Source: Styela clava | Lineage: Eukaryota | Direction of reading: 5' to 3' | Assembly: GCF_964204865.1 (NCBI RefSeq) | Contig: NC_135260.1 | Location: 15,770,478 to 15,834,477, forward strand | DNA: 64,000 bases | Shown here: positions 6,737-62,677 of the stretch, in pieces | Position numbering within the stretch: the first letter of the stretch is position 1 | Layout: each line of letters begins with the position of its first letter | Program-made: the position numbers and the translations under genes | Notes under the pieces: generated by a model | Told to the model about the DNA's origin: nothing | The model's input: only the letters and a program-made list of their open reading frames with translations | The model's database searches: none

Positions 6737-7660
6737 CCAGTGGCGATACTGTAACAAAGTGGTTCTCAAACTTCTTCGTATTGTGACGCCCTCCGAAAAA
6801 ATATGTTCAAGTTGCGACTCCCCGTGAAACCCGTCTTAATACCTTTCAACAAAAGACCTTTTTTGCAATGAGTTTCATTTAAACGAACAAACAAAACTAA
6901 ACCAAGGTCGGGGAAATTGCATTCAATGGGATGGGAATACTTGCGTCTTTTTACAATTGTCACTGAACTTTGGTGAGAATTGTGAGAGCCGCACGCATTT
7001 CCCTCTCAACATTTACTCGAGATCGATATTTTGTGTGTATTACGACCATGGTCGAATAACCTGCTTTACATGGATACGAAGTCGCAAAAGGGATCAAAGT
7101 GCGCAACGCTTTTTTTACCAAGGAAGGATAATCACTATTGAGGGAAATCCAAAAACTCATTTTCAGAATTAAAATTTCTTTTTACGTCGATTTCGTTCAA
7201 AAAAGAGAGATCGATATTTTGTGTGTATTACGACCATGGTCGAATAACCTGCTTTACATGGATACGAAGTCGCAAAAGGGATCAAAGTGCGCAACGCTTT
7301 TTTTACCAAGGAAGGATAATCACTATTGAGGGAAATCCAAAAACTCATTTTCAGAATTAAAATTTCTTTTTACGTCGATTTCGTTCAAAAATGGCAAAAA
7401 AAAATCAGCAATGTATTGTTGAAGCAAGATTTTAGCCAGTTATCTAATAAGCCCAAACGGCATTTAGTAACATTGCATCCCCAGTTGCGACAAAAGTCGC
7501 GGAGTTTTTCTACTTGAACGATCCAAAGTCAATTTAGCCTACGTCATACTTGCGTTTTTTGACTTTTCTTGTTCAGTATCATTTTCACAAAGCAAAAGAG
7601 ATTCCGCAGAAAAAAAATTTGCGATGCCCACTTTGAGAACCACTGCTGTATCGTATCAAT
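6737..7660. mobile_element. Degenerate element bounded by inverted repeats containing GTGGTTCTCAAA, with an internal tandem duplication.
   Basis: 6738 ccagtggcgatactgtaacaaagtggttctcaaac, versus the reverse complement of 7625–7660, attgatacgatacagcagtggttctcaaagtgg. Related to the CAGTGGTTCT family. Confidence 0.45.
7019..7391 (+). repeat. Tandem duplication, 2 × about 188 bp (7019–7206 and 7207–7391).
   Basis: The two copies are near-identical. Track ORFs 7138..7329 and 7326..7517 share an identical N-terminus (MREIQKLIFRIKISFYVDFVQK) because of the duplication. Confidence 0.85.
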
Positions 7661-8374: not shown

Positions 8375-8660
8375 AGAGTTATTACATCAAACGGAATCAA
8401 CATTGTTAATAGTCTCGTGCATCACGGAGTGAGATGGCAGCCTATATAGTCGGAAGAGTAAAGAGCAAGTATGCAATCTTATAAATCTTTAAATTCATTT
8501 GAATTGGCTTCCATCACCATCAAGTCCATGCTTCCGAAAACAAATAACTAACTAATCCCACACTCGACATGGAATGGCAACCTGACGAGAGGCCGTAGTT
8601 CGCCATATGGTTAAGCCGTCTTATCGGCTTTCCTCTCCTCGGGATAAATATGTAAATCCT
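8375..8660 (+). mobile_element. Composite SINE-like repeat. The 3' 155 bp matches the SINE tail at 13352–13510 at about 80% identity. The 5' part matches a different repeat seen at 3361–3500.
   Basis: Direct alignment of the segments. This suggests SINE subfamilies that share a tail but carry different heads. Confidence 0.5.
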
Positions 8661-10386
8661 ATCCTTTCCACCACCTCACGGAACTAAAATCCACTCCATT
8701 TTCGATTTCTTTCAGAGTGGCCAAAATAAAATTGATTGATTCTCCATTATCGTATATTGCCCATTCTCGTCTCTGAAAATGCTTTTCATCCAGAATACAA
8801 CACAGAATAAACAACGCTCTCGGGCTATGCGGATCAAAGTACATGAGCAAAACGCATGGTAGGTTCTGTACGAAAACAATCAGTCGATTGTGAAATCACA
8901 CCACGACCCTGCTGTACCGGTAAAGGAACACGTGCACACAGCGAGGATGCCAAATCAATAGTACCAGTACCGGTAAGGAGATTTGTTTCGACTGTATAAT
9001 CAGCATAACGACGATACACAAATTCGGTAACAAAATGGAATGTTGAAGAGATGATTAAAAACGACCGAAATCAAACTAAATTTATATAATTTATAGATAT
9101 GTTCAAAATCGGAAGTGGACAGGCTGCGAGTGACCAAAAAAAACTGCAACTACTTTACTTTAATTAAACTCGTGCACCTGAAAACTGGTAACGCAAATGC
9201 CAATGGTCCGTGTTGAGTTGTGATGTTGTAACGGATCGAATAAGTCAACTGTTATAGAGGATAGAATGATACCGAAGAGTGAACGGATTGATGTTAGAGA
9301 GAGATTTATTGCCACTAAACAAACTCAACACTATTATAAACATAATACAATAACGAAAATATTTCAGCAGTAATGACAGTGATTGATTATTGCTTTGTGC
9401 GGGTCGGTGTGCAAGACCGATTAAAGTCATCTAGGCTCTCGACCCTTGTTTATATGCTGTATATAAGACTATCATGGCATAAAATAGTACAATAGGTGGA
9501 TGCAAACGAGAATAAACATAAAATATAAATAAGATAAAGAGATGAGTCGACAATTTAATGGTATTATGGAAGTTAATATTAATAAGGGCAATTTAGGATT
9601 TTGAGAGATCATGTATATATTGGTTGAACTCGGACATGTCCAATGGAAAGATTTTCGCAAAAAGCATTTTTTTTTATTGGGCAATGACCGGGTTAAAAAT
9701 GAAATATTAGGGACGAGAAATAATATCATCACAGATTCAGCATTACAGCGAGCGCATGAAGTAAAAGTATCATTTCCCACCTCAATTAGTTCACGAGAAG
9801 AATATAGGGAAATTTTTTTTAATAAGCACTGAATATTGTATAGTTGCTATCAACATTCATAAGTATCTATACATATTTGAAAAAGAACTGAAATATTATT
9901 ATATGATTCACAATTAAATACACAGTTCACTTGTTACATAGTGGGTTTTACAATATAAAGAGAACATTACTTGAAATAGACTGGAATATTAATGTATGAT
10001 TCACAAGTATGATCCATGAGTAAGATAGGTTATCAGTTATTTTGAAATGTATTAAAAAACTATAAATTGTCACAAATTTGGCCGCAAACACAACGTTTCA
10101 TCATTTCTGATCATTCAAATTAAATGACTTCATAGCGATACATCGACATGACGCTGTATAATGCATGCGCAACAATAGTGCAATACACTCTGGATTAGGG
10201 AAAGAGGCACTGTGAGTTTTCGACCGAAGCCTCACTAGGTTTGTCATATTCTGCATATGATTGAAAACTACATGTACTAGAATATTTTATATATATATGT
10301 ATATTTTTGGAATTTTTACTAACATCAGTTGTGCAAGAATTCTAACACTTATAAATTTTTAGCAGACGGGCCTTCTATAACGAAAA

Positions 10387-10497
10387 GTGGACCTCCTGAA
10401 GTATGCGCACCACGATGTCGCACAGCCTGAACATTGTATATGTACCAGGTTAGGATTAAGGTGTGCGACATCTTGGTGCGCATACTTCAGGAGCACC
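10387..10497. mobile_element. MITE family A, copy 1 (short form, about 110 bp).
   Basis: Inverted ends GTGGACCTCCTGAAGTATGCGCACCA…GGTGCGCATACTTCAGGAGCACC. A-rich flanks, gaaaag and aaaaag. Confidence 0.6.
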
Positions 10498-13184: not shown

Positions 13185-13510
13185 AGTGTGGCTCATGTTG
13201 CTAAGCGTTAGGAATATGCTTGCCACCGCACCTCTGATAACTCTGCATGGATTCGAAGGTTCGGATCCCATGAAGGGATAGTTATGTGTGAGAGGATTGC
13301 TAGATCTTTGCCGCCATAGGGTGGTACACGTAACCGGTGGTCGGTTACGACTTCCTCCACCATCAAGTCCATGCTTCTGAAAAAACAAATAACTTATCCC
13401 ATACCCGACATGGAATGGTATCCGGACGGGAGACCGTGGGTTCCGATAAGGTTATTAAGCTTCCTTATCGGCTTTCCTCTCCTCCGAGATAAAATGTCAA
13501 TCCTATCATA
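13185..13510 (+). mobile_element. tRNA-derived SINE.
   Basis: The head has a tRNA-like box A, gtggctcatgttgctaagcg, and box B, ggttcggatccc. The tail, ccatcaagtccatgcttctg…tatcggctttcctctcctc…aatcctatc, is shared with 8505–8660. Confidence 0.6.
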
Positions 13511-21646: not shown

Positions 21647-21884
21647 GGCGCTCCCGTAGTATGTGAACCAAGATGGCGGAAACCGCATCCTATAGTATAT
21701 GTACCAGGTTAGAGTTAGGTCCTAATTTTATTCCAATTTTCCTTATTTTAGTTCTATCACGTGTTCGGAGACTAGCTAAGCGACTCCCTTAATATTTGTA
21801 CCTGAAATTATGGACTGACCCTAACCTGGTACAAATACTACGTTCCGGTGTCAGCCATCTTGGTTCACATACTACGGGAGTACC
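21647..21884. mobile_element. MITE family A, copy 2 (long form, 238 bp), 5' of agmatinase exon 5.
   Basis: Inverted ends GGCGCTCCCGTAGTATGTGAACCAAGATGGCGG…CCATCTTGGTTCACATACTACGGGAGTACC. 8-bp TSD GATTATTT (21639–21646) and GAATATTT (21885–21892). Confidence 0.7.
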
Positions 21885-21983
21885 GAATATTTACTTAAAC
21901 AAAGAGTGCTTGTTAAAAATATACACACACGATAAAATTTTATTATCTTCTAGCAACCTTACAATTATAATCCAACTTAATAC

Positions 21984-24165: not shown

Positions 24166-25502
24166 AGTTGCAATACCTGTTTACAGAAGAACGTTGTACC
24201 AATATTTGCATAAAATTTAAAGAAATCGCTTAAAATTACCTGCAGGGAACGCCAATTCGCTAGCACTTGTTGGTTCATTAAACTTCTTCTCCACTTTATT
24301 TTCACACAGAAGAATTTTTGATTTTGGGACGTGTTCAGGAGCTATAACAAATTCAATGTGTTATATTCTTGGTAATGTAAAATAATTTAAAAATATTTCA
24401 TTCCGCCATGAACTAGAACTCGGCAAATATTAACAAAATTCCATTTCCACTGACAAATTCAAAATATCTCCATTACAAATGTGCTATGATAAAGCTATAA
24501 GTTTTCTCACCGGTGTGGTGATGACACTTTCTTGTAGAATTGTGTGACATGTTCTTTGTACTTTGAAATGTAATATGGAATAAGAACTATGCTAAGAAAG
24601 CTAATCTTACTGTAATCAAAAAGTTCCAAAAAACACGTTTGAGACTATCTTATGAAAAATCTAGGTGTAGTGTGAAAAGCCTGCCGATAAATTTCTGAAT
24701 TGTTTAATGAATACATTTTTTTAACTTTTCCATTCTCTTTGAACAATTTGCTTATTACCTACCTAGTGCTATATTCCACCTAAACTGACACTAGAGTCTT
24801 CAATTTGCCATACGATGAAGCCGATATCAGATTTATTTTGCATTTGTTCAAATATTACTATTTTCTGCCCTTATTATTTTACAGAATATCACGCTGCATC
24901 CGCATACTTTTGCACCTGTGTACAATTGCATCCACGGGCATTTGCGCTAAGAGAAGTTTGCACTCTCATAAATTTGTACCAGTGTTGTATGAATGTCCGT
25001 GCGTGCGAAGGCTGGTGCGAATACCATGAATCAGAGCACAATAAAGCAAATGCTACGCCATTATTATGTCAGTGTAATAAGTAATTCATCGAATCTATAA
25101 GCGCAAATGAAGCTCCGCGAAAACTTCTCCACCTTGTTCAATTTTCAGCTGACCAAATTGATGAATTTTTATTCTGGTGAATGACAAAATCAGTGACTGA
25201 ATACGAAATCACATGGTATGTCAATATTAAACTTACACGCTACCATTCCTCCCAACTATAAATTACATTTTGAGGCTTTCGATTGGCTGTTTCAGTTCGA
25301 AGTGAGTGTTGGTAATGTTTGTTAGTAAATAGAATTACATTGATAATATTTTCGATACTACGGTACTGGAACAAAAGTCAATTATCTAACTAACATATAT
25401 CCTCGTGTAACGAGCCTAGATGGTCTTACTTCGAATCTCCGAAAAATCAAGATAACTGAAAACAAATTTTTGTTTGTCGACTACACTGAATTATAACTGA
25501 AT

Positions 25503-25519: not shown

Positions 25520-26112
25520 GGTGTCGCTTTACTCTTTGTATATTGTATCCAGAGTCGACTTGCTTGGCAAGTGCATGAGTACATCTATTGATCTATTATT
25601 CAATACTTCACCTAAAATATATCTTGTCGATGTATTCGATGGTGCTGATGCTGCTTCTTTCAATGATGAGCGAATGATCCCAACTTCCGTCTTAATGCTG
25701 TCGCCAGAATGACTGTGATTTCCTAGTTCATTCATTACATTTTCATCGATCGTAACAACAGTCGATTTAGGGCTTAGGCTACATCGAAATTTCTAAAACT
25801 GGCGGCAGCGCCCATCAAAAGCATTGATGAAACCCGATCATTTCGCTTAAAATATTCGGGGTCTTTGTAGATCAGTAAGTAGTTTTCTCTTGAGGTTTTA
25901 GAAAATGTAAGCGCCATGTTTCCTACTTCTTTTTGCAAAAGAACTTTTCATCTTCGCAGCGGCAACGGCTTCAAGAAACAGATTTGAAATTGTTTGTGAG
26001 GGAAAGGGCATTAATGCGAGAGAAAACTTTGCGCGGGATCGAACTAACACATCAATTGTGAAACATTTTGTCGGTTGTGTCGTGTGATATCGAAAATTGG
26101 GTTCCATTAAAT

Positions 26113-26175
26113 TTAAACCCATGTACATTTGAACCCACGACAATTGCACCTGCATACTATTGCACATATGGAATT
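26113..26175. repeat. Dispersed 60-bp repeat, catttgaacccacgac(a/g)attgca(c/t)ctgcatactattgca, that carries the minisatellite unit. A second copy is at 48313–48375; related inverted fragments are at 61520–61590 and 61900–62000.
   Basis: The two copies align at about 90% identity. The unit therefore belongs to a dispersed repeat family. Confidence 0.6.
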
Positions 26176-26419
26176 TTTTTGATTTACGGATATTTGAACC
26201 CATACTAACCCTAACCCATGGGTACATGCGGATATACACGTGGATTCAAATGTACGTGGGTTCAAAAGTACGGTCACCGAAAATTGCGACGACAATGACA
26301 GTCGAAGTATAATATGATTATATACGGTATGTATATCTATAAATGACCATAAAAAGTTGGTAAAAGAAATGGAAAGTTGAGGGTGTATAGGTACATACGC
26401 TAATATCCGTAAATGCAAA

Positions 26420-26900
26420 CGTCTACGGGTGAAAATGTACATGGGTGCAAATGTACGTGGGTGTAAATGTACGCGGGTGCAAAAGTATGTGGGTGCAAAA
26501 GTACATGGGTGTAAGTGTACGCGAGTGCAAAAGCACGTGGGAGCAAATGTACGCTGGTTCAAATGTGTGCGAGTGCATATGTCCAATGGTGCAAATGTCC
26601 GCGGGTTCAAATGTACCGGGTGCAAATGTACATGGGTTCAAATGTCCGTAAGTGCAAATGTTTTTGGGTACAAATATCCATGGGTGCAAATGTTCATGGG
26701 TGAAGCAAAAATCTGCAGGTGCAAATGTATGGGTGCAATTGTTTATGAGTTCAAATGTTCGTATGCAGTATGCAAGTGAAATTGTCCTGGGTGCAAATTA
26801 CAGGTTCAAATGTTCGGGTGCAAATGTAAGTATGCAGATGAAATTGTCCTGGGTGCAAATCATTTGTTCAAATGTACGGGTGCAAATATAAGTGGGTTCA
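26420..26900 (+). repeat. Minisatellite of about 28 degenerate tandem copies of a 17-bp unit, GTGCAAATGTACGTGGG. An inverted partial copy lies at 26113–26140 and direct copies at 26230–26275.
   Basis: Visible periodicity (gtgcaaatgtacgtgggtgtaaatgtacgcgggtgcaaaagtatgtgggtgcaaaagtacatgggtg…). The unit lacks stop codons in several frames on both strands. This produces track ORFs 26113..26625, 26423..26689, 26429..26779, 26445..26651, 26515..26703 and 26652..26891. Confidence 0.85.
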
Positions 26901-30941: not shown

Positions 30942-33554
30942 TCACTCGTCATCATCTTCATCTTGTCGTGTTCTCACAACAGCAGAAGACTGAAAACCTT
31001 GACTGCCAATCAAACCATGAGCAGTGTTGAAAAGATTTATTGGAGAATTTCCATCGGTTATCAGAGTTGATGTTAAACCGAGGGCCTTCAGCATTTTCAC
31101 TTGCATATCTGGTCCGGCAGAAGCAATTTTGCAAATAGTATCCGGTCCGATGGTTTCAACCATATTTTTGAATTTTTCTGTCTCGATATCACCTAACTGC
31201 TTCTGTTTCTTTACTTCCAATTCGTCCTGCTCACGAGAATATTTCAGTTCTGCATCACGGGCTGCGGTCAAGCGCTCTAACTCAGATGTTGAATCGATTC
31301 GTGCTGCCTCTGCTTTGAGTTTTGCTTGGTCTACAGCAGCTTGACCTTCAATTCGAGCAGCTTCTGCTCTTGATTGTGCTTCTGCCTTAGCTTGCCCTGT
31401 GCTTTCAATTGCAGCACTCAATGATTGAAGTTCCAGAAGATCTCTTCTGGACCGTTCAGCCTCTGCTTCATCAGTAATCTTTTGACGTTCAAGTCTGCCT
31501 CTTGCTTCCTGCTCTGCCCTTTCTGCTTCATGACGTGCAGTCGCTTCCTGGGAGTTTGTTGTGATTTCAATAGCAAGTTGAACAGATTTCACCAGAGCAT
31601 CTCGGGTTCTTTGGTCCACAGGTTCAACGGACTGGATATCGATAGAAGTTATAGTCAGCCCATTTTGTGGGAAAACGAACTTGTCACGAACTTTTCCTTT
31701 TTCATCTACGCCAAATACAGAAGACCTAATGATACGAGATGAATTCTTATGAAAATCATCGAAAGTGACAGAAGCAACAGCCCCTCTTACACGAGATGCA
31801 ATTGCCTTGCAACAATCTCCCACAAAATCAGGTACACTGAATAATTTTGCAGCATCTTTCTGGTCTTTTCGGGCATTGTCTGTATCAAAATACCAATTAT
31901 ATGCAAGTTGCAATGAGAGACGTGCATGGTCAGCAGTTTCAATGGTAATGACATCAGTACAAAAATCTGGTCCAAGAAGCAACGCAAGCGACCTAATGAC
32001 ATTCGGACGTTTTGGTTTTCCACCCGAGAGCGACAATTGCGTGAATTGCTCATCAGGATTGAGCATCACAAGCTCAGGTCCGAATATCACTCGTGCTTTC
32101 TTTTCCTTGTAATCATAAATTTGTACACAAGCATTATGAGGAACTCTATAAGAAACTACTCTTGTTTTATCACGACGTAATTGAGAGGGGCCTTTGTTTC
32201 CTTTCTCCCACATCCCTCTGTCAGCCGAAGGATCGATAGCTGATGTCACTAGTGCCTCAACATTGGGAGGAAGCTCTTTCTCCCAAAGTTCTTCATCATG
32301 GGTCAACATGTAAGTGCGGCCACAAACAGCTCGAACTTTACCAGTTTTTAGGTCACGTATGTATATACCTTCATTTTCATCGAGAGAAATTGCACTTCTT
32401 TTAGCAAATACATTGACCTCAACGGATGGAACATATTCGGTGGGTCCTCGGATCATCCACTTGTCTCCTGGCTTGCGCTGTATTTCATTGCTATCATCAA
32501 AATGAGCTTCTTTTGCTTGTAATATAAGGCCCTGATCTTCTCCAAGCACATAAACATCCTGAATGCCTTTCTCTAATTTTTCACCAGGTTGAAGGAAAAA
32601 AGATGCTTCTCCTTTCACAAGTTTGCGCTTGCCAAGTTGGTTCTTTCCATCATCTTCTGAAACTGGGTCAACTATCACACAATATTGTCTACTGTTCAAA
32701 GTAGTTATATCAACAACACCTAAGACTTCTTCATGAACATCTGGAATATGAGATTCCGTGTCCGACATACGAATTAACCATTCTTCTCCATTCTTTCGTT
32801 TCACATTCAAAAAGTCTGTGAAGGTACGACTCGCTTTCATATGCAAAGCTTTCTTTTCAGTAAGAACATATGCCTCCACAAGTTCGACAACTTCTTCATA
32901 GGTTCCGGGTAAATATGCTCCAACTTTTTTAATTATCCACTCCTCCCCAGTCACACGCTCAGTGCCATCCCGATCAACTGTTTCTTTTCTCGCACGCAAT
33001 TTTATTGCTTGATTTTTGCGAATCACTGTGGCTCTGATAGTCTCCTCTACCAGAACCTCTTTGCGTGGAATGTAGGTACCTGGTCCTTCAAATAACCATT
33101 CGTCACCAGCCACTCTCTTAACATCACCGTCAGTAAAATCAAGTTCCGCTCTCATACGCAACGCAGAATTTGCAGGGACAATACGCAGTGCACAAACAGC
33201 AGATTTTAAAATTTCACCAGGATAAAGTGGGAAGGGATCCTGAGCCAAACGAATCTCTCTATCAGCATAGCTGAGCTTTGCCTGACCAGACTGGTCATAC
33301 TGAACTTCACCTTCTTTATTTCTTACAACAGGATTTTCTATGGTGCAATAATGACGAGGTGGAATCGTAATCATACGCTCCGGTCCATATATGACTCTTT
33401 CATTATCTTGCCGAATGTAGGTTTTAGGCCCAAGCTCCAACTTTGTTACATTGGTGTTCTGGTCCAAAACATGGATGTAGAAATAAGGCGGAATTCTGTA
33501 AAGTGCTTCATCCTGGCCGGACATGTTAGCAAATGAAGGTGCTTTCTTACTCAT
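30942..33554 (-). CDS. MVP: Major vault protein: a single uninterrupted ORF of 870 aa with no introns. The true start may be the second ATG at 33524 ([22 protein letters not shown]).
   Basis: Collinear with human MVP along the whole length: the [13 protein letters not shown]…[14 protein letters not shown]-terminal motifs, the vault repeats, the shoulder region, and the C-terminal coiled coil ([17 protein letters not shown]…AEAARIEGQ…LKAEA). ATTAAA lies about 110 nt after the stop. A TATA-like TATATATA sits about 40 bp upstream of the ATG. Confidence 0.93.
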
Positions 33555-38663: not shown

Positions 38664-38986
38664 CTGTTAATCAAAAATATAGCAAAGTTTACTACTTTTT
38701 CAATTGTAAATATATTTACCTATAGCATCTGCGCAAGGTAAATCAAAACGCTATTACGCCTCATACAATTCAGAACAACGTATGGCCTCTTCCACACATA
38801 CAAACTTTATATTTGCTCTAGATTCATTACAAGCCAGAAACAAAGCATACATAACTCCACAAACATTTTCCAATGTGATTTGTACTATTCGAAATAATTA
38901 TTATCTCTTGTGAAAAATGGTATCAACAAATCACATTCTCACATACGACAATCTCCCTTCCTAATCATAATGAATTATCGAGATAC

Positions 38987-39208
38987 CTTTCTGTCATTTT
39001 TGTATAGTTTGAGTCGAAAACAAACCAGTCCAAGTTCAACGGAAAATACAATTTCAAATCTTTTGTCTTCTAACACATAAGATTCAAACATTTTCGCCAA
39101 CGCTACGTCTTCTCTGATTTTATGTCTCAGTCCTTCGATACCGATAAGTCGAAAAACAAACCAAAGTTTCAATGCACGAAATTTTCTGCCTAGAGGAATT
39201 TGACAATG
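38987..39208 (-). CDS. DDC: DDC-like exon 10: [74 protein letters not shown].
   Basis: Acceptor tttcttccag|CAT. Donor AAG|GTATCT. Matches human [67 protein letters not shown]. Coordinates are anchored to track ORF 38975..39334. Confidence 0.82.
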
Positions 39209-39291
39209 CTGGAAGAAACAAAACTTTGTGATAGTCATATCCGTGAATTTAACGCAAAAGTTTTTTTGCAACATTTGCCACGAATTTCGAA

Positions 39292-39393
39292 GCTCCCGCA
39301 GTATGTACACCAAGATGGCGCACAGCCTGAACATAGTATGTGTACCAGGTTAGGTAGGTTTCAGGTTGTCCGCCATCTTGGTGTACATACCAC
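39292..39393. mobile_element. MITE family A, copy 3 (short, right end partly deleted), in the intron between DDC exons 10 and 9.
   Basis: GCTCCCGCAGTATGTACACCAAGATGGCGCACAGCC…CCGCCATCTTGGTGTACATACCACC. Track ORFs 39200..39418 and 39249..39437 lie inside it. Confidence 0.6.
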
Positions 39394-39708
39394 CAAATTT
39401 GTACGTGAAAGCATATGAACCTGTACATGTGTTTCATCTGTAAACTAGGGGGTAATTTGAAAGAGTCAAGAACTTTTCGGTTGTGCTAAATAAGTTGGAT
39501 TTTTAGTATGATGTACATCTATATCTGATAAAAATTGCACAGTCAAGCCATTTATATACAGAAAAATTGATATATGTAAACAATACAAAAATGTGTTAGT
39601 ATATATATATATTCGACCCCGAGATAGATAAATGTATTCAATATTTCTTTGATTGGTTTACATTCATTGTGAAATTGATTTGTTAACAAATTAAGTTAAG
39701 CAGCTTAC

Positions 39709-42229: not shown

Positions 42230-42464
42230 GGCCGCTTCCGTAGTATGTGAACCAAGATGGCGGACACCGGAACGTAGTATGTTTACCAGGTTAGGGTTAG
42301 GCCATAATTCTATTTCAATTTTCCTTATTTTAGTTCTATTACGAGTTCGGGAACTAGCCAAGTGACTCCCGTAGTATTTGTACCTGAAATTTGGCCTAAC
42401 CCTAACCTGAAAGGCATACTACGTTCCGGGTCCGCCATCTTGGTTCACATACCACGGGAGTACC
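42230..42464. mobile_element. MITE family A, copy 4 (long form), in the intron between DDC exons 5 and 4.
   Basis: GGCCGCTTCCGTAGTATGTGAACCAAGATGGCGGACACC…CCGCCATCTTGGTTCACATACCACGGGAGTACC. Flanks ACAAAATT and CAAAAATG. The internal sequence matches 21647–21884. Confidence 0.65.
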
Positions 42465-47700: not shown

Positions 47701-50126
47701 TCATTTTTAGGAGAATCGAAAGCTCAAAAATATTGCGCTAACACATATTTTATTGTTCACATGTATACCAAAAAGGATAGATAGTTTGAAGACGACTGGC
47801 GCGACATCATTGTTATATAAGCAATCAATAGCTTTCAACATGCGTTATATTATCTGGATATCTGTCGTCGTTTTCATTAAGAGTGTTTATAATACATACG
47901 AGGAATATTGTTACAGATTTAACAACGAATTTTAACCAGTTAGGGTATGTACTATTTATAGAGGTAAAAGTCATAACATAGGCGCAAATTAGTAAAAACA
48001 GAATTGATTATAGACTCGGTAAAAATGACCTGGACTCGAAATCGAATCCGAGTCCAAAAAATGCCTTGATTCGACTCGAATCCGAGTCCGGATCCGAATC
48101 TCGGCCCATCCCTAGAAGCCAGTGCCTTCAAATTTTTCTGCGAAGGAATAAATTATTTAATGACAAATCATAATTAATTTTATCAGCAATTAGACTTCAT
48201 GGAATTATTTTTATAAAAAGATGCATTGATAAATAACTTAAAAGTGTCTATCCACTTCCATACGTCATCAATCAGACGTTGTCGGACAAGGAGATGCCTT
48301 CAAAATAGGTTCCATTACATTTGAACCCACGTACATTTGAACCCACGACGATTGCATCTGCATACTATTGCAAATTTAGCATACTATTGAATGAGCCAAT
48401 CAGATTTTGTTTTTTTGAATATGGGGCTTTCCAGAAGACCGTTTAATGAATATGTGGATCTCGTAGGCCAGCTGCTCAAATTGCGTCAGAAAGCTTGCTA
48501 CGCAAATTGTGTTGCTGATTTGATGTAAACACAAGAGAGCGGTGCTCAAATATATGAACTCAAAATGGTACGGGTATGCAATCTGCCACATTAGCCTACC
48601 GGTACCGTATCGCAGCCAAGCAGCAGATTTTACTTAAGCAAAACCGGAACCGCCACAAAAATCGCAATTTTGATGACGTCGTCGCTCACAAAAAAATCCA
48701 GGTCACAGCAATTTTCGAAATAAATAAAATTAATAGCCTTATAGCGAAAAATTTTTAATTGAAAACAATGCAGATTGTGTTTATATGTATGTTTGATATG
48801 AATTTATGCTGTTCCTCGTATTTTTCCATTCCGGGAGATATGTGTGCCAACGGTATTTATTCTTGGGATTCAATTGTCCCAGTGGGATTGAACAACAGAA
48901 ATACAGTGTGAAATTGGGGAACCATCTGGGAATCAAATTCGCTGAACTCGGTCAATGGAGATTCACAAATTGCCATGTTATTATGCTGCTTCTCCCACGG
49001 CCGACCATTTCTTCCTCAACACTCACGAAATACTGAGCGTATGGATTTTTTTTGTGATTGGTTTTACAAAATACATTATACGACTTGTATACAACCGTGC
49101 GAAGTAGGCGGAAAAATATTGTTGCCACCAAATAATTTTCGCCACCATTTGTTACTTTTTCGCTTTAAGTCGTCTATATATTTATTGTATAAGACGGTGG
49201 AGCATTGACAAGCAACATCTCGTTTTGAACCATTCTTTTGTTTTCTAGTTATTACTGTTTCTACTGATTCATGGCAGTTACGCATGAGCAACACGTCTTT
49301 GGTGTCTCTCCCTCCAATGAATACACAATAACCCCTTTTTACATACCGCCATTTCACTTTTTTGTCAAAACTTTGCGTTCAGCTACACGTTTTTACAGGA
49401 ATATTCAGGCTCGGTATTAAAAGCCAAGCAGCAACGTATATATATGTCCCGACGGGAATATAAAATTAGGTGAAATGGGATCTCGAGGCAAACTTTTTAT
49501 GTATCTTCCGTGGAATGGAAAAGCATGTAAAACAAGTGTATTACAAGTAATGTATTACAAGTTAATTTCATTCCAACTAATAATTTTTCGTCCTAAACTA
49601 AACGATTCAATTAAATTTTAATATTGCTGTATTTAGTTGCCGATGCGTTTTCCTGATTACGTCTTTCCAGACCCTTGATTTAACTTTGCATTAGGTATTT
49701 GTTACATTCTAGCTAAAATTCCTACAGCTGTTCTTGTGTTCCGTAACTTAATTGACACAATGATAACATAAAATGATTGGTACATGAGTGCTTTCTGATT
49801 ATGAAGGATCCTGACAGAAACATTGCAGTGCATTTACATTTCACAGGCTCTTATCATCTCAACATTTGAGAATCTAAACTTTAGACCAGGGGTCGCGACC
49901 CCAAATTGGGTCGGAGTGATAAATAAGTAGGATTACAAACAGGTCATGGGGTCGCTGATGTATGGCCACTGAACTGGAAATATATCTCTGTGGGTATGGC
50001 AGAGGATGGATGTACAAAACATCTAAGATTTTACAAACCATGTTACGTTTAGCAATTTGTACCATGGCTTACTGTAAAACAGGCCCATAGGCATTGTTCC
50101 GTGTTTATGGCTATAGATAGAGTATA

Positions 50127-52298: not shown

Positions 52299-53347
52299 CT
52301 GAAAATTCAATTTTATATCTTGTTATATTATCGTTCAAAACCAGATATACAATAACACAAAAACTTTAAAAGCTTCGTGAAATTTCCAAGTTTCAATTAC
52401 CAATTATTTCACAAACAACAAGTTGCAATATGAAGGTTTTGCTTCGCCTATGAGTCTGTTTACATTTCATAGAATTTCTACAACTTATTGAAATAGGAAA
52501 TTTTAACACTGATTGTAAAAAAATGCATTTTGCTGAGAATAATTGAAACAGCACATCACCGCGGAGGATCACACGATCTTAAGTGCTACAAAGGCGTAAC
52601 GGTTTATTTATAATTACAAATATTAATGTATTGACAACATTTATTACACCGTAAATCACGAACTTCACTCTCAACAAGGTGAATGTGAAACGCAATCGCT
52701 TCAATCTCGTGAGTTTTTTTTTATAATTATTCACATATATAGTGTCTATTAAAACTTTTCCATGGTCTGTGGGATACTACCGAATTTACTAGAGAGAGCG
52801 GAATTACCATGACGATAGTTTCTTTGTAGCAACTGAAGTTTGAATAGTTGATTTTCAATGAGTTTGTTTCAAATAGGAATGTCTGATCTCGATCTATTAA
52901 ATAAGTCAAAAATTTCTGAAGTGATAAATGTAAGGGCGAGAGAACTTGCATGTTCAGACATTTATGTTCACAGTAACTGCAGGCAGTTCAAACTAGGGAA
53001 CGCAATACAATGTGGAAAGTGGAATGAATTCAGAAATTTAATTCAAAAGTTGTCTTTATCGAACACGACTTTTTAGTTGGTAAAGCTTTGCGATCAGATC
53101 CGTGCTGACAGACAATTTTTTTCATGCTAAATACTGTTTGCCATGTTTGTAGTAACAATGAGTAGTGTTTTGAAATAGCTCTATTTAATAATTTTTGGAC
53201 TAATTGTTTCTGAATTGAATCCAGTTCAAAATTGTGATTCAGATTTGCGACGCATTTAACATCATAAAGTGAACCTCCTGCAACTATGATATTCATATTT
53301 TCTTCAGATTATTGCACCAGAATTTTTGGAACAATTTTAGGGCTTAC

Positions 53348-53476
53348 TTGAGCATATAGCAGCTACGGAGTAAAATCCATCTTCACATACACAACCTTGA
53401 GCTTGTGTCAGCACGTTCAAAATTCTACAAACTTGATTTGTTGTGCATGCTATATTGCCATTAGCACATTCATCAG
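53348..53476 (-). CDS. EGF-like exon A: DECANGNIACTTNQVCRILNVLTQAQGCVCEDGFYSVAAICS, 6 Cys, phase 1-1.
   Basis: Acceptor caattacag|CT. Donor TCAA|GTAAGC. Joined to the pentraxin exon, A+CC gives Thr with no frame break. Carries the CxC…GF/Y EGF signature. Confidence 0.7.
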
Positions 53477-54146: not shown

Positions 54147-54382
54147 GGGGCTCCCGAAGTATGCGAACCAAGATGGCGGACGTCGGAATGTAATATGTGT
54201 ACTAGGTTAGGGTTAGGCCATAATTTTAGGTATAAATACTACGGGAGGCTCTTGGCTAGTCTTCGAACTGATAATAGGACTAAAATAAGAAAAATTGGAA
54301 ACAAATTATCGCCTAACCCTAACCTGTTACCCATGTTACGTTCCGATGTCCGCCACCTTGGTTCGCATACTTCGGGAGCACC
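54147..54382. mobile_element. MITE family A, copy 5 (long form, internal core inverted relative to copies 2 and 4), in the intron between EGF exons B and A.
   Basis: GGGGCTCCCGAAGTATGCGAACCAAGATGGCGGAC…GTCCGCCACCTTGGTTCGCATACTTCGGGAGCACC. 8-bp TSD AAAAAATC on both sides (54139–46 and 54383–90). Confidence 0.7.
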
Positions 54383-56066: not shown

Positions 56067-56207
56067 CTAGGCAGTTCAGGGTATCAGAAGGATCCTTGTA
56101 AAAACCCGTTAAACAGACACAACCTTGCAAATTGGTGGGTGGATCTACAAGGGCACAAACAGCGTTATCCTTGCACGTGGTAGTTCCGGCAGACGAGCAT
56201 TCATCCA
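56067..56207 (-). CDS. EGF-like exon C: VDECSSAGTTTCKDNAVCALVDPPTNLQGCVCLTGFYKDPSDTLNCL, phase 1-1.
   Basis: Acceptor tttgaacag|TG. Donor CTAG|GTAAGT. Paralogous to exons A and E (the QGCVC…GFY motif). Confidence 0.72.
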
Positions 56208-56502
56208 CTGTTCAAAAAATAAAACCAAAGGTTAAACCTGGCCTCATTTGGCGATATTATTATGACCATCCTATATGGTCGTAGATTCAATTTATATTTT
56301 GCCGAATAATACAGGGATAAAAATAAATATAGGAAAATATTGTTCAATTTTCATAAAGACTTCTCATGTATTTAAAATTCATACAGAAGTTAACTCTATA
56401 AATTAAAAATATATATTGAAGTAGTCAATTTGTTTTAGAAGTAACACATTATGTTGATTGTTGTATATTGAGAAGTTTCAACAATAATGCATTTGAATTG
56501 TG

Positions 56503-56571
56503 TGCTACCGAAGAATGTGCACCAAGATGGCGCACAACCTGAGCCCTAACCGATACTTCTGGAGCGCCTTG
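56503..56571. mobile_element. MITE family A, internally deleted derivative of about 70 bp, in the intron between EGF exons D and C.
   Basis: GTGCTACCGAAGAATGTGCACCAAGATGGCGCACAACCTGA…CTTCTGGAGCGCC. Confidence 0.45.
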
Positions 56572-56885
56572 AATTGTTGTCATCCCAATGAAAACTGTAG
56601 CTATGTTTCAAATAGCTCGTCTCCGCCTGAGTTTTCTATATTTTAAACGCTTGAATTTACATGCCAATGTCCATTAATGATAAAAAGGAGTATCCCAATT
56701 ATAAAATCCGAGTAAATCTTTAAATTGTGGAAAAAAAGAGGAAAAATTAAACCAATATATAATTAATGTTTGCCCTGTGATTTCACAAGTTATGAGATAG
56801 AAAGCCAAACTAATTCATTCCAAAGTTCAAGGAATACATTTTGCTACTTTAACTTCTCTATATCATTAGTAGTGTAGAGAAAAAA

Positions 56886-56992
56886 GGCGCTCCAGAAGTA
56901 TGTGCACCAAGATGGCGCACAACCTGATAACCCTGGCACACATACTATGTTCAGGTTATGCGCCATCTTGGTGCACATACTTCGGGAGCACC
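56886..56992. mobile_element. MITE family A, copy 7 (short form), whose end lies 15 bp from the splice donor of EGF exon D.
   Basis: GGCGCTCCAGAAGTATGTGCACCAAGATGGCGCACAACC…GCGCCATCTTGGTGCACATACTTCGGGAGCACC. TSD GAGAAAAA and AAAAAAAA. The exon donor GTGAGTA starts at 57007. Confidence 0.7.
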
Positions 56993-57007
56993 AAAAAAAA
57001 TACTCAC

Positions 57008-57142
57008 AAAAACAGTCAGTACTGGGAGCTGGTTCAGGCAGGTAATTGTCTTTACAGATACATTTTCCAGCTGGTGGCGTAGATAGGTGATTCAAAACTT
57101 TTATTAAATTGGTCCCACAAGATGCCAGTCCATCCAGTGGAT
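57008..57142 (-). CDS. EGF-like exon D: PLDGLASCGTNLIKVLNHLSTPPAGKCICKDNYLPEPAPSTDCF, phase 1-1.
   Basis: Acceptor ccgattgttag|AT. Donor TTTT|GTGAGTA. Track ORF 56844..57149 reads past this donor into an intronic MITE. Confidence 0.7.
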
Positions 57143-57537
57143 CTAACAATCGGAATTTTTGTTACTCTTTCATTGTACTAGAGTTAACTAGCGTTCATTA
57201 ATGCTCAAATTGAAAATGGCGCCGTTTTACTTCTAGAACACCTTTTGGACTTATTTGATATTATCCCTAAACTGTCAAGATTCAGTGGCATTAACCCAAA
57301 AAGATGTGTTGGAAGTACCAGGTTTAGTACTTATCTTTTGTTTTAGGTTTAGATCACGTGTCTGTTTGTAATACGGGATATGACAATTAATATCAGTGTT
57401 GTAGTCACCCGCCACAGTTCATGCAAATGAACTTCCGAACTATCGTTTTACCTACCTAACTTATTCAAAAATAAAAAATCGCCCTCTTATTTATATTATT
57501 TTTATGTATTCATATACAAGTACACAGCTTAACTTAC

Positions 57538-59517: not shown

Positions 59518-61090
59518 CTGGAATTGCAAATAAATATCACACCGAGCCTTCAAAATAAAATTGTATTGATAGTTTACGAGCATACATCTGTCATTAGTTC
59601 ATGTGAAATTACAAAATCGCACACTTTACAATTCCATTTCCCATTTTTTTTTAAGTCAGTACATGCTCTTGAAACAATATTTAGGAGCATGTAAAGAATC
59701 ACAAAGGAAATGAAAACGAAAACTAAGATAAATGCTTTCCGCTGTATTAAAAAATATGGCAATACACAAATAAATACATAATCGCGGAGGGTAGCGCTGA
59801 GGTAAACACGCGCTGTCATAAACAAGCCGAATCACATCCGCAGAAATATTGTGTGGTGCTGGCAAACCAGTAATAGAAAATATGTTACTCTAACTACGAT
59901 GACTTTTGTCTTAAAAGTAATCACATGAACACTCACATAAGTAAGAACAATTCCGTGAAGCATTAGTAAAACAAAGTCCACAATGTGATATATAAATAGC
60001 CTCATATATACGAACTTGGTGCGATTTTCAAACAATCGGTCTAGCATACAGTCACCTTTGCTGTTTCCTCCACGCCGGGACAAATATGAAAATCTCAATA
60101 ATATTCAACCAATGAATAGTTTTACTTCTAACAGATACTAAACATGTTGAGCAATAGATGTAATCAAAGTTCAATGATGTTGTTTATGAATTCTATTTTG
60201 CAAATTTACGAATGTGTGTGTCTGTTCATCCATTATATCGTAGATCGACCTAGCTCATGGAGTCCACTTTTATTTAAATAACTCAAGTAATTGCATTTGT
60301 GTCGACAGAGTTGTATAAGTTTGGAGACGAGCAATACTATTCGGTTCAGTTTAAAAAAACATATTTATTTGTCGCGTACCTTGGTACAAACCCGAAACAA
60401 CTTTATTGATTTTCGCATTTATAATCTTTGCAGTTAGTATGATCTAATCTAATAAATTAATGTCATTAAATGTTGTTTCGAGTAGATATCTGATTTCAAA
60501 CTCAAGCTCGAGTCCGAAGACATGATAAGCAACATCAGGCATAACATATATGCTCACAATACAAGATACCACAATTGGGAAATGCACAAACATATCATAC
60601 TGTGCACTCATGTATATCAGCATACAATTCCTTTAACAGGAAATATCTGGAATCTTCTTTGTCTCAAGCAACTATAAATTTCCTGTCAAAATAATCACAA
60701 ACCAATATTCGAACAACCGCAATCGCTTTTACGAAGAACAGATCAGTGAGTCATATTTGGAACTCATATTATTGTGCAAAGCTTCCGATTTCGATTCTTT
60801 GTAGAAAAATCACGTAAGGCAATAAGTTTATAGCACAAACTGTATATATTCCTTTCCTATTATTACCTGCTGCAGATGCTGTGCATATAAATTTCAAACC
60901 CAAATGCAAAATTGTCATTCAACTATTTTGCTTGTACAACAAAAAGGGATAACAGTAATTTGAAGCGGCACACATACTAATTTCTCATTACCAATCAATA
61001 AATCTTTGGAAAAATATTATAACTATCTCATTTTTGACAACCAGAGGGGGGAAATTTAGTAAAAATTTGATAGGCATATAGTATACTCAC

Positions 61091-61277
61091 GGTCAAGTGG
61101 AGGATCAACTGTACAAACTTCGCAAAGTCCATGAAAAATGTCATCACATGATTTATCATCAATCCATGCATGATCAAACCAGTCCGGATTTAACAATGAA
61201 ACTAGACAAGTGCTTGTGACGTCACTGGGACTACCCGGTTTCCAGTCCACTGCACTACTTCCGGTATTTAAAGCAGT
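61091..61277 (-). CDS. C-type-lectin-like domain, C-terminal half exon: TALNTGSSAVDWKPGSPSDVTSTCLVSLLNPDWFDHAWIDDKSCDDIFHGLCEVCTVDPPLD + 1 nt, phase 0-1.
   Basis: Follows the CTLD pattern W..G.P…C…..W.D..C…..LCE. The EPN/QPD and WND Ca/sugar positions are degenerate here (KPG, WID). Acceptor ttacacgaag|ACT. Donor GACC|GTGAGT. Joined to EGF exon H, C+AA gives Gln. Confidence 0.6.
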
Positions 61278-62677
61278 CTTCGTGTAAAAGAATGAAAAAA
61301 AAAATATTTTATTTGAAAATAATTTAGGCAGTGGGAGCTTTGGGGATACGCAGGCCAAACCTTCGTTCCTGTTGTGACTGAACTGCTTGCCGACTAATGG
61401 CAGATTTCGACTGCTTGTCTAAATTTTCATATGTCGAGCTCATAGCACCAAAACCTAATTCTCAAAGTGTTTTATATCGTCTATTACGGTAACAGTTGCA
61501 CTCACGATTTTTTGAATCCGTAAACTGTCCGCAGGATATTTGCACCTGCATACTTTTGCACTCATCGTCATTTGCACCCACAGATGTTAGCACCAGATTG
61601 GAAATCAAGACAGATTACTATTTGTAATTTGCTTGTATTCCTGGTTAGTGTTGCTACGTTTTTTGCAATCATTGCTGGTTACAATCCCATCCCACTTTTT
61701 CTTTTTGTTGGTCATTTTCTTTCAACGAAGTAACGCAAACGTAGTCGAATTTACGGTGATTTTCTAGTCAGTACACATAGGCAATCATATCGTACGAAAA
61801 CAGGCCACAAATAAATTTACAACGTCAGAGTTAATTAACTAATAATGCAAGACAAGAGAAACGTCAATAGCGAACAATGAAAAAAGAGAAAACTGAGAAC
61901 GTGGGTGCATATTTCCGCGGTTGCAACCGTGCGTTGATAAAACTGTGCCTGGGGGCAAACATTCATGGGCACAAAAGTATGTAGGTGCAAATACCCTGGA
62001 TGAAATTTTCTGGTGCGAACCGTCAATCATATTATAACGCGTGGATGGTTACTGAGATGAGAGCAAACAGTCTCTAATGAAAAGACCTATAAAATAAACC
62101 TAATTTTAGCTCAATTTCCATTTATATAACCTAAAACTAGTTAGGCCAGACGAGCACAACTTTTTATGTACGATGAGATTAAAAAATTTTCAGGTAAATC
62201 TATACTTTATTTTAAATCCTATAGCTTCCATTTTCGATTGAAGTTTTGCTCGTTATATTTTGATCAGGGATTCAAATAAGTTGTAGCAACTAACCCCATC
62301 ACCGGCAACAAACGAAGTTCCACTTTTTCGAAACCCTGTGTATGTAATGACATCACTATCAAGTGTATATCCATTCACTTTGAAGTAATAAAGAATTTTC
62401 CTGTAATAAAGTTCATTCTATTTAATATTATCCTATTACATTCTATTTAATAGACTTGTTGTGTTTATTACTTATGCATGTCTGAAAGTGTTAAAAATCC
62501 CTGTTGAGAATGAGTATTTTACTTTCCCACGAAAGAATAATAATCGTACTGGTGTTTATTCTGTTGTAACAAATTTATAAACATTCTCAAAAACATTTCA
62601 AGTTTTCGGTAAGAAGTTGAGCCGTTGATAAAACAAACTTTCTCGCAAATTCAAAATAAAAACTGTTACTTCAAAAC

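Follow-up and report, generated by a model that had tools for sequence, protein, structure and literature searches.

Gene content of the window

The window analysed here, a 64-kb stretch of Styela clava DNA with a G+C content of 33–42%, harbors an agmatinase-like gene, a DDC gene and a gene for a Cys-rich protein with tandem EGF-like modules and a pentraxin domain. The agmatinase-like gene contains an exon of the arginase/agmatinase family (PF00491, E = 2.5e-32) with its donor at 21983, and a further exon with a DIDALDP motif is situated downstream. Using a human DDC sequence as tblastn query, 11 exons of DDC were mapped to the minus strand (44689 to 38502), of which exon 10 was confirmed as Pyridoxal_deC (Pfam). 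Between these two intron-rich genes, an intronless ORF of 870 residues (30942–33554, minus strand) matches XP_039272615.2 ('major vault protein-like [Styela clava]') at every residue, which identifies the window as nuclear DNA of this ascidian. This MVP ORF may be a retrocopy, although its flanks show neither a clear poly(A) remnant nor a clear duplication.

The Cys-rich gene runs on the minus strand and is built from seven modules, A to G, each encoded by a single exon. Modules A (58963–58835), B (58447–58316), C (57669–57538), F (54684–54553) and G (53476–53348) frame exon D (57008–57142, 135 nt) and exon E (56067–56207, 141 nt), both of phase 1-1. All seven exons are 129–141 nt long, have lengths that are multiples of three, are bounded by an AG acceptor and a GT donor and are in phase 1; joined in silico, they form one open frame of 309 residues. 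Exon D, which encodes the module DPLDGLASCGTN...STDCF, is preceded by the acceptor AG at 57143–57144 (ttgttag/AT, as read from the sequence) and followed by the donor GTGAGTA at 57001–57007 with G+1 at 57007. According to the exon mapping, the 800-nt intron between D and E spans 56208–57007. In all seven modules the exon ends one or two residues past the last cysteine, in exon D one residue past it, and thus GTGAGTA at 57007 is found just where module D should have its donor. The open frame of exon D by itself is modest evidence, since 8.4% of random 45-codon frames in the window are open. The exon-side context of the donor is weak (TTT/GT), giving a 6/9 match to the consensus, and the pyrimidine tract of the acceptor is poor; with such splice sites, exon D could be sensitive to nearby changes.

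EGF-like domains are characterized by a pattern of six cysteines that includes C-x-C-x2-G-aromatic, and six aligned cysteines are present in six of the seven modules. Module D, with four, is the only one missing two, namely cysteines 1 and 3, and keeps the four invariant cysteines together with the C-x-C-x2-N-Y motif. It is on average 28% identical to the other modules, compared with 29–34% among those others. The preliminary description had referred to exon D as an EGF exon, which agrees with the cysteine pattern but not with the Pfam EGF models, the best of which (EGF_MSP1_1, E = 0.046) stays below significance. A PDB sequence search with the modules gave no match. The AlphaFold (AF2) model of module D, with a pLDDT of 69.8, displays a central β-hairpin, and its best Foldseek matches, follistatin/SPARC FS and MSP1-19 EGF modules, all have E > 1. 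The modules are EGF-like by their cysteine pattern only.

Downstream of the modules lies the pentraxin-domain exon (Pfam PF00354, E = 2e-20). In the intervening stretch (52338–53348, minus strand), module G ends in phase 1 and the pentraxin ORF cannot be joined in this phase at the nearest AG, an in-frame TAA being located just upstream; probably an unrecognised small exon or another acceptor is present between 53348 and 52338. Upstream of the Cys-rich modules, an ORF at 61056–61358 (minus strand) ends in WIDDKSCDDIFHGLCE, which resembles the C-terminal portion of a C-type lectin domain; Pfam gave no match for this fragment. Within a protein collection that covers some S. clava proteins (MVP is included, DDC is not), no S. 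clava protein matched the spliced modules plus pentraxin exon.

A family of palindromic MITEs

Repeat finding in combination with blastn revealed seven copies of one MITE family in the window, ranging from 68 to 238 nt. The TIR sequence of the family is GGYGCTCCNGAAGTATGYGMACCAAGATGGCG, and its core GTGCACCAAGATGGCGCA is found at 12 places in the window when up to three mismatches are allowed, compared with 0.02 occurrences expected. Copies 1 (10389–10497), 3 (39290–39394) and 7 (56886–56992) are short forms. Copies 2 (21647–21884), 4 (42230–42464) and 5 (54147–54382, 236 nt) are long forms of about 236 nt with extra palindromic sequence, which includes GGTTAGGGTTAGG. Copy 6 (56501–56568) is internally deleted to 68 nt and lies inverted with respect to copy 7. 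The TIR arms of the copies other than copy 7 measure 37–80 nt in the inverted-repeat search. GGTTAGGGTTAGG corresponds to two telomere-like TTAGGG units in each arm of the long forms (21701–21730, 42283–42300, 54200–54216 and the mirror arms), and the family therefore scatters interstitial telomere-like motifs.

For the analysis of the target sites, the ends of each copy were set by homology to GGYGCTCC...GGAGCRCC before the flanks were compared. The 8-bp flanks match perfectly in copy 5 (AAAAAATC) and in copy 6 (TTGAATTG, at 56493–56500 and 56569–56576), at seven of eight positions in copies 2 (GATTATTT/GAATATTT) and 7, and at 6/8, 5/8 and 4/8 positions in copies 1, 3 and 4, respectively. Random 8-mer pairs at equal spacing reach at least 7/8 in 0.09% of trials (0.0009). 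The target sites of the family are A/T-rich. With TIRs, a TSD of fixed length, small size, multiple dispersed copies and a lack of coding capacity, the family displays the characteristic features of MITEs.

Six of the seven copies are intronic. The preliminary description had placed the family in introns of two genes, and the intronic location is borne out; however, the number of genes rises to three (agmatinase-like, DDC and EGF-like/pentraxin) with copy 2, which is positioned 99 nt past the donor at 21983 in an intron of the agmatinase-like gene. The remaining assignments agree with the earlier ones: copy 3 lies in DDC intron 9 (39708–39209), 81 nt upstream of the acceptor of exon 10, copy 4 in DDC intron 4 (42708–41826), copy 5 in the intron between modules F and G, and copy 6, like copy 7, in the intron between D and E. 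Copies 6 and 7 have common asymmetric termini (GGCGCTCCAG versus GGTGCTMCCG) and are mutually inverted at a distance of 317 nt; the common termini and the shared intron suggest local transposition.

No transposase ORF is contained in the ORF list of the window. A scan of the whole window retrieved no Rfam family and the tRNA scan no tRNA, so that a reading of the elements as SINEs or as a known ncRNA is unsupported. The TIR pattern had 0 matches in metagenome and viral contigs. A search for element translations among predicted proteins, which would indicate exonisation, gave no match in a collection that includes few S. clava proteins.

Merlin elements are characterized by 8–9-bp TSDs and by TIRs of at least 24 bp starting with 5'-GG (Feschotte 2004, summarised in PMC8101967), and Merlin is present in the ascidian Ciona intestinalis (PMC8101967). 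The family described here has an 8-bp TSD, 12 of its 14 termini (seven copies, both ends) start with 5'-GG, and its host is an ascidian. In contrast to the Merlin superfamily, however, it has no DDE_Tnp_IS1595 transposase partner in the window, and the likeness is structural only. By TSD length and GG termini alone, the family is probably Merlin-type. For S. clava, this amounts to a candidate family of Merlin-type MITEs that comes in a short and a long form and duplicates 8 bp of an A/T-rich target.

MITEs of the hAT type are likewise short and palindromic with an 8-bp TSD. However, the TIRs of hAT elements typically open with YA(R)NG, whereas the termini found here, GGYGCTCC, are not of the YARNG type. 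The family thus agrees with hAT in TSD length but not in its termini.

Copy 7 and the donor of exon D

Copy 7 (56886–56992) is a palindromic element of 107 nt. Its two arms (56886–56927 and 56951–56992) were delineated by the inverted-repeat search; they comprise 42 nt each, are 93% complementary and enclose a centre of 23 nt, and the termini are 5'-GGCGCTCC and GGTGCTCC. On the plus strand the element reads GGCGCTCCAG...CGGGAGCACC, followed by A8 at 56993–57000 and TACTCAC at 57001–57007, so that the sequence across the insertion is ...GTAGAG AAAAAA / GGCGCTCCAGAAGTATGTGCACCAAGATGGCGCACAACCTGA ... TCAGGTTATGCGCCATCTTGGTGCACATACTTCGGGAGCACC / AAAAAAAA TACTCAC AAAAACAGTC...

The TSD that had been noted beside copy 7 is a real 8-bp duplication, albeit an imperfect one: the left copy AGAAAAAA (56878–56885) and the right copy AAAAAAAA (56993–57000, A8 on the plus strand) agree at 7/8 positions. 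Since the 8-bp flanks match across the family far above chance, the A-run beside copy 7 is a TSD and not a tail. An A-run belonging to the element, or a poly(A) tail, is moreover ruled out by the non-A duplications of copies 2 and 6. A TA or TTA duplication, as in Tc1/mariner or PIF elements, is ruled out as well, the 8-bp flanks matching far better. With its 8-bp TSD, copy 7 qualifies as a genuine MITE.

Re-mapping confirmed the right end of copy 7 at 56992, 15 bp from the GTGAGTA donor, and the coordinates of the preliminary description proved correct throughout. From this 15-nt offset (57007 − 56992) it follows that copy 7 starts at intron position +16, and it spans +16 to +122. The right TSD forms a U8 tract at positions +8 to +15 of the intron in the pre-mRNA. 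The empty site would contain ...GTGAGTATTTTTTTTCTCTACAC..., and on the coding strand it is expected to read GTGAGTA-TTTTTTTT-CTCTACAC.

The ORF list includes a mechanical ORF of 101 residues at 56844–57149 (minus strand), which continues from exon D across the donor and all of copy 7. As already proposed, this is an artefactual read-through and no gene. An artefact of the same type is the mechanical ORF at 38975–39334 (minus strand), which starts in copy 3, crosses the intron and enters DDC exon 10 (acceptor 39210–39209). ORF tracks that read through exon–intron–MITE junctions, at exon D and at DDC exon 10, represent a caveat for annotation. An exact look-up of the MVP ORF and of the read-through ORF among contig records, aimed at alleles or transcripts, yielded no match.

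To evaluate the proximity of copy 7 to the donor, each intronic copy was allowed to land uniformly in its own pre-insertion intron (387–832 nt). Under this model, at least one of the six intronic copies comes to lie 15 nt or less from an intron end with a probability of 0.27; the probability is 0.09 if splice signals are excluded and only positions +8 to +15 are allowed. The five other intronic copies are 81–293 nt away from splice junctions. The proximity of copy 7 to the donor is statistically ordinary, being met by chance in 9–27% of such windows. Given about one copy per 9 kb here, similar cases should be numerous genome-wide.

Predicted effect on splicing

Due to the duplication of the 8-bp target, the intron is unchanged by the insertion through position +15, and this stretch takes in the U8 tract as well as every one of the six intronic positions of the donor consensus. 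As an isolated RNA, copy 7 folds with −80.9 kcal/mol (z = −12.8), and the identical closed hairpin is formed in context. For comparison, an empty site was modeled by removing copy 7 and one copy of the TSD, and the ensembles of both sequences were compared. The energy for opening donor positions −3 to +6 is 4.57 kcal/mol with copy 7 and 4.89 kcal/mol without it, values from thermodynamic folding, which leaves out co-transcriptional kinetics and proteins. In both cases, and likewise when the whole intron is folded, only weak pairing links the donor to exon bases 57015–57022. The minimum-free-energy structure of the entire intron joins 55 nt of copy 7 to copy 6 rather than to the opposite arm of copy 7; here too, the pairing of the donor is unchanged.

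A scan for donor-like sites with at least 7/9 matches to MAG/GTRAGT, from exon D to the end of the intron, found only one, at 56660, which is located outside the elements. The best donor-like site within copy 7 is GAA/GTATGT at 56980. It matches at 6/9 positions, lies 27 nt downstream of the exon D donor and in frame, and is buried in the 42-bp stem. No donor-like site in copy 7 outscores the donor of exon D in this consensus scan.

These results bear on two suggestions of the preliminary description, that a hairpin this close to the donor can affect splicing and that it can create cryptic exons. The first is not supported by the predicted opening energies, the intact positions +1 to +15 and the ordinary proximity; as to the second, none of the donor-like sites of copy 7 beats the real donor, and the best of them are located inside the 42-bp stem. 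Folding of the exon–MITE region, which had been proposed as a check, yields a self-closed hairpin and an unchanged accessibility of the donor. What had been recognised as MITE, TSD, intronic family and ORF artefact thus stands, whereas the implied significance does not. The computations argue against occlusion of the donor; effects at the protein level or of kinetic nature could still act.

The following course of events appears plausible. A transposase supplied in trans would have inserted copy 7, a non-autonomous cut-and-paste element, into an A/T-rich 8-bp target, the U-run directly after the donor of exon D in the gene with tandem EGF-like modules and a pentraxin domain. With the target duplicated, positions +1 to +15 would read as before and a change would be felt only from +16 onward. 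In the pre-mRNA, copy 7 most likely closes into its own 42-bp hairpin or pairs in part with copy 6. In either fold the donor should be as accessible as before the insertion, and copy 7 would leave with the 800-nt intron, its effect on splicing being absent or negligible. Probably, copy 7 is a Merlin-type MITE that travels as a passenger of the intron with no or negligible influence on splicing; exon D would then be spliced normally and the insertion would be neutral. As an intronic MITE only, it would be of little importance, one more in a repeat-rich ascidian genome. For the genome of S. clava, 46.7% repeats and 1.72% heterozygosity have been reported (PMC7540406).

Alternative interpretations

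Splicing of exon D might be perturbed if the hairpin at +16 hindered the U1 snRNP or factors binding the U-run, or if the donor at 56980 were used. The outcome would be frame-preserving skipping of the 135-nt exon, an extension by nine residues or retention of the intron. Such a perturbation appears unlikely. The weak exon-side context of the donor (TTT, 6/9) and the symmetric 1-1 phase of exon D are in line with it, as is an in-frame cryptic donor of equal consensus score 27 nt downstream; however, that site lies within the stem, the insertion has touched neither the U8 tract nor any of the six intronic positions of the consensus, and the accessibility of the donor is predicted to be unchanged. 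The lack of cysteines 1 and 3, which concerns module D alone, likewise counts in its favour. In canonical EGF domains, however, these two cysteines are bonded to each other, and the loss of this pair with an intact frame suggests continued selection rather than decay. Moreover, the insertion is unlikely to be brand new, since its TSD has already acquired a mismatch.

It is very unlikely that copy 7, alone or together with copy 6, turns exon D into a cassette exon or adds nine residues via 56980. If it did, a transposon insertion would adjust how many Cys-rich modules a lectin/pentraxin-type protein contains, or what form they take, and might do so as a polymorphism of this highly heterozygous, invasive species; altered inclusion of exon D in carriers would provide a natural case in which a transposon modulates an extracellular protein of modular build.

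Exon D might instead be a decayed duplicate module or a pseudo-exon, with GTGAGTA non-functional and copy 7 residing in a 1330-nt intron between C and E. The failure of the Pfam EGF models to recognise the modules, the pLDDT of the module D model and its lack of a significant fold match, the share of random frames that are open, the poor pyrimidine tract of the acceptor and the frame being kept when D is skipped would all be compatible with this. Nevertheless, it is a decidedly unlikely reading: the four invariant cysteines of module D align with those of all six paralogues, the C-x-C-x2-N/G-Y motif is kept, exon boundaries and phase are identical to those of the other six modules, and the identity to the paralogues was counted as lying in the range of the family.

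Copies 7 and 6 might also pair in the pre-mRNA, loop out the intervening sequence and, by shortening the distance between donor and acceptor, modulate splicing. Arms of 41 nt that are 93% complementary, and the 55 nt paired in the minimum-free-energy fold of the whole intron, would permit this. However, copy 7 is transcribed first and can self-close at once with its −80.9 kcal/mol, and the pairing of the donor is the same in that fold, which renders the proposal highly improbable.

Intronic inverted-repeat pairs, for example Alu pairs, are known to drive exonisation or back-splicing in primates. Copies 5, 6 and 7 resemble them in being complementary copies in the same or neighbouring introns, but each S. 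clava copy is a palindrome and as such its own best partner. Stem-loops that sequester splice sites are known from tau exon 10, SMN2 exon 7 and artificial hairpins in yeast introns. Copy 7 shares with these the stable RNA stem near a 5' splice site; however, their stems include splice-site nucleotides, whereas the stem of copy 7 starts at +16 and all donor nucleotides are located outside it, so that by its predicted fold it is not a splice-site-occluding hairpin.

That copy 7 is an introner, which created the intron or supplies one of its splice sites, can practically be dismissed, even though S. clava is listed among the introner-containing taxa (PMC12130899) and the tunicate Fritillaria borealis is known to have MITE-derived introns (PMC11282704): the donor lies outside copy 7 and its TSD, 678 nt separate the far end of copy 7 from the acceptor, 0/7 copies are coextensive with an intron, and the intron position is common to all seven paralogous modules, all in phase 1. 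Like the introners and MITE-derived introns of Micromonas and Fritillaria borealis, copy 7 is a short TIR element with a TSD, here in a tunicate intron. In contrast to them, it does not span the whole intron together with its TSD, nor does it supply or co-opt a splice site via the TSD, the donor being 15 nt outside. Since its position is common to the paralogous modules, the D–E intron predates the insertion of copy 7.

Further repeats in the window

Apart from the MITE family, the window contains a 16-bp minisatellite, GGGTGCAAATGTACGT, with about 17 repeats at 26427–26702. Arrays related to GGGTGCAAATGTACGT, in direct and inverted orientation, are found at 24895–24976, 26094–26182, 48302–48390, 61539–61594 and 61902–62003, and point to a second dispersed repeat family, made up of short tandem units. 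Another dispersed repeat, about 125 nt long and without relation to the MITEs, occurs at 8539–8663 and 13380–13507 and also at 60047–60099, its copies being 77–81% identical. At 7019–7391, a 188-bp unit is present twice, head to tail and with 100% identity, which reflects either tandem duplication in the very recent past or an error of the assembly.
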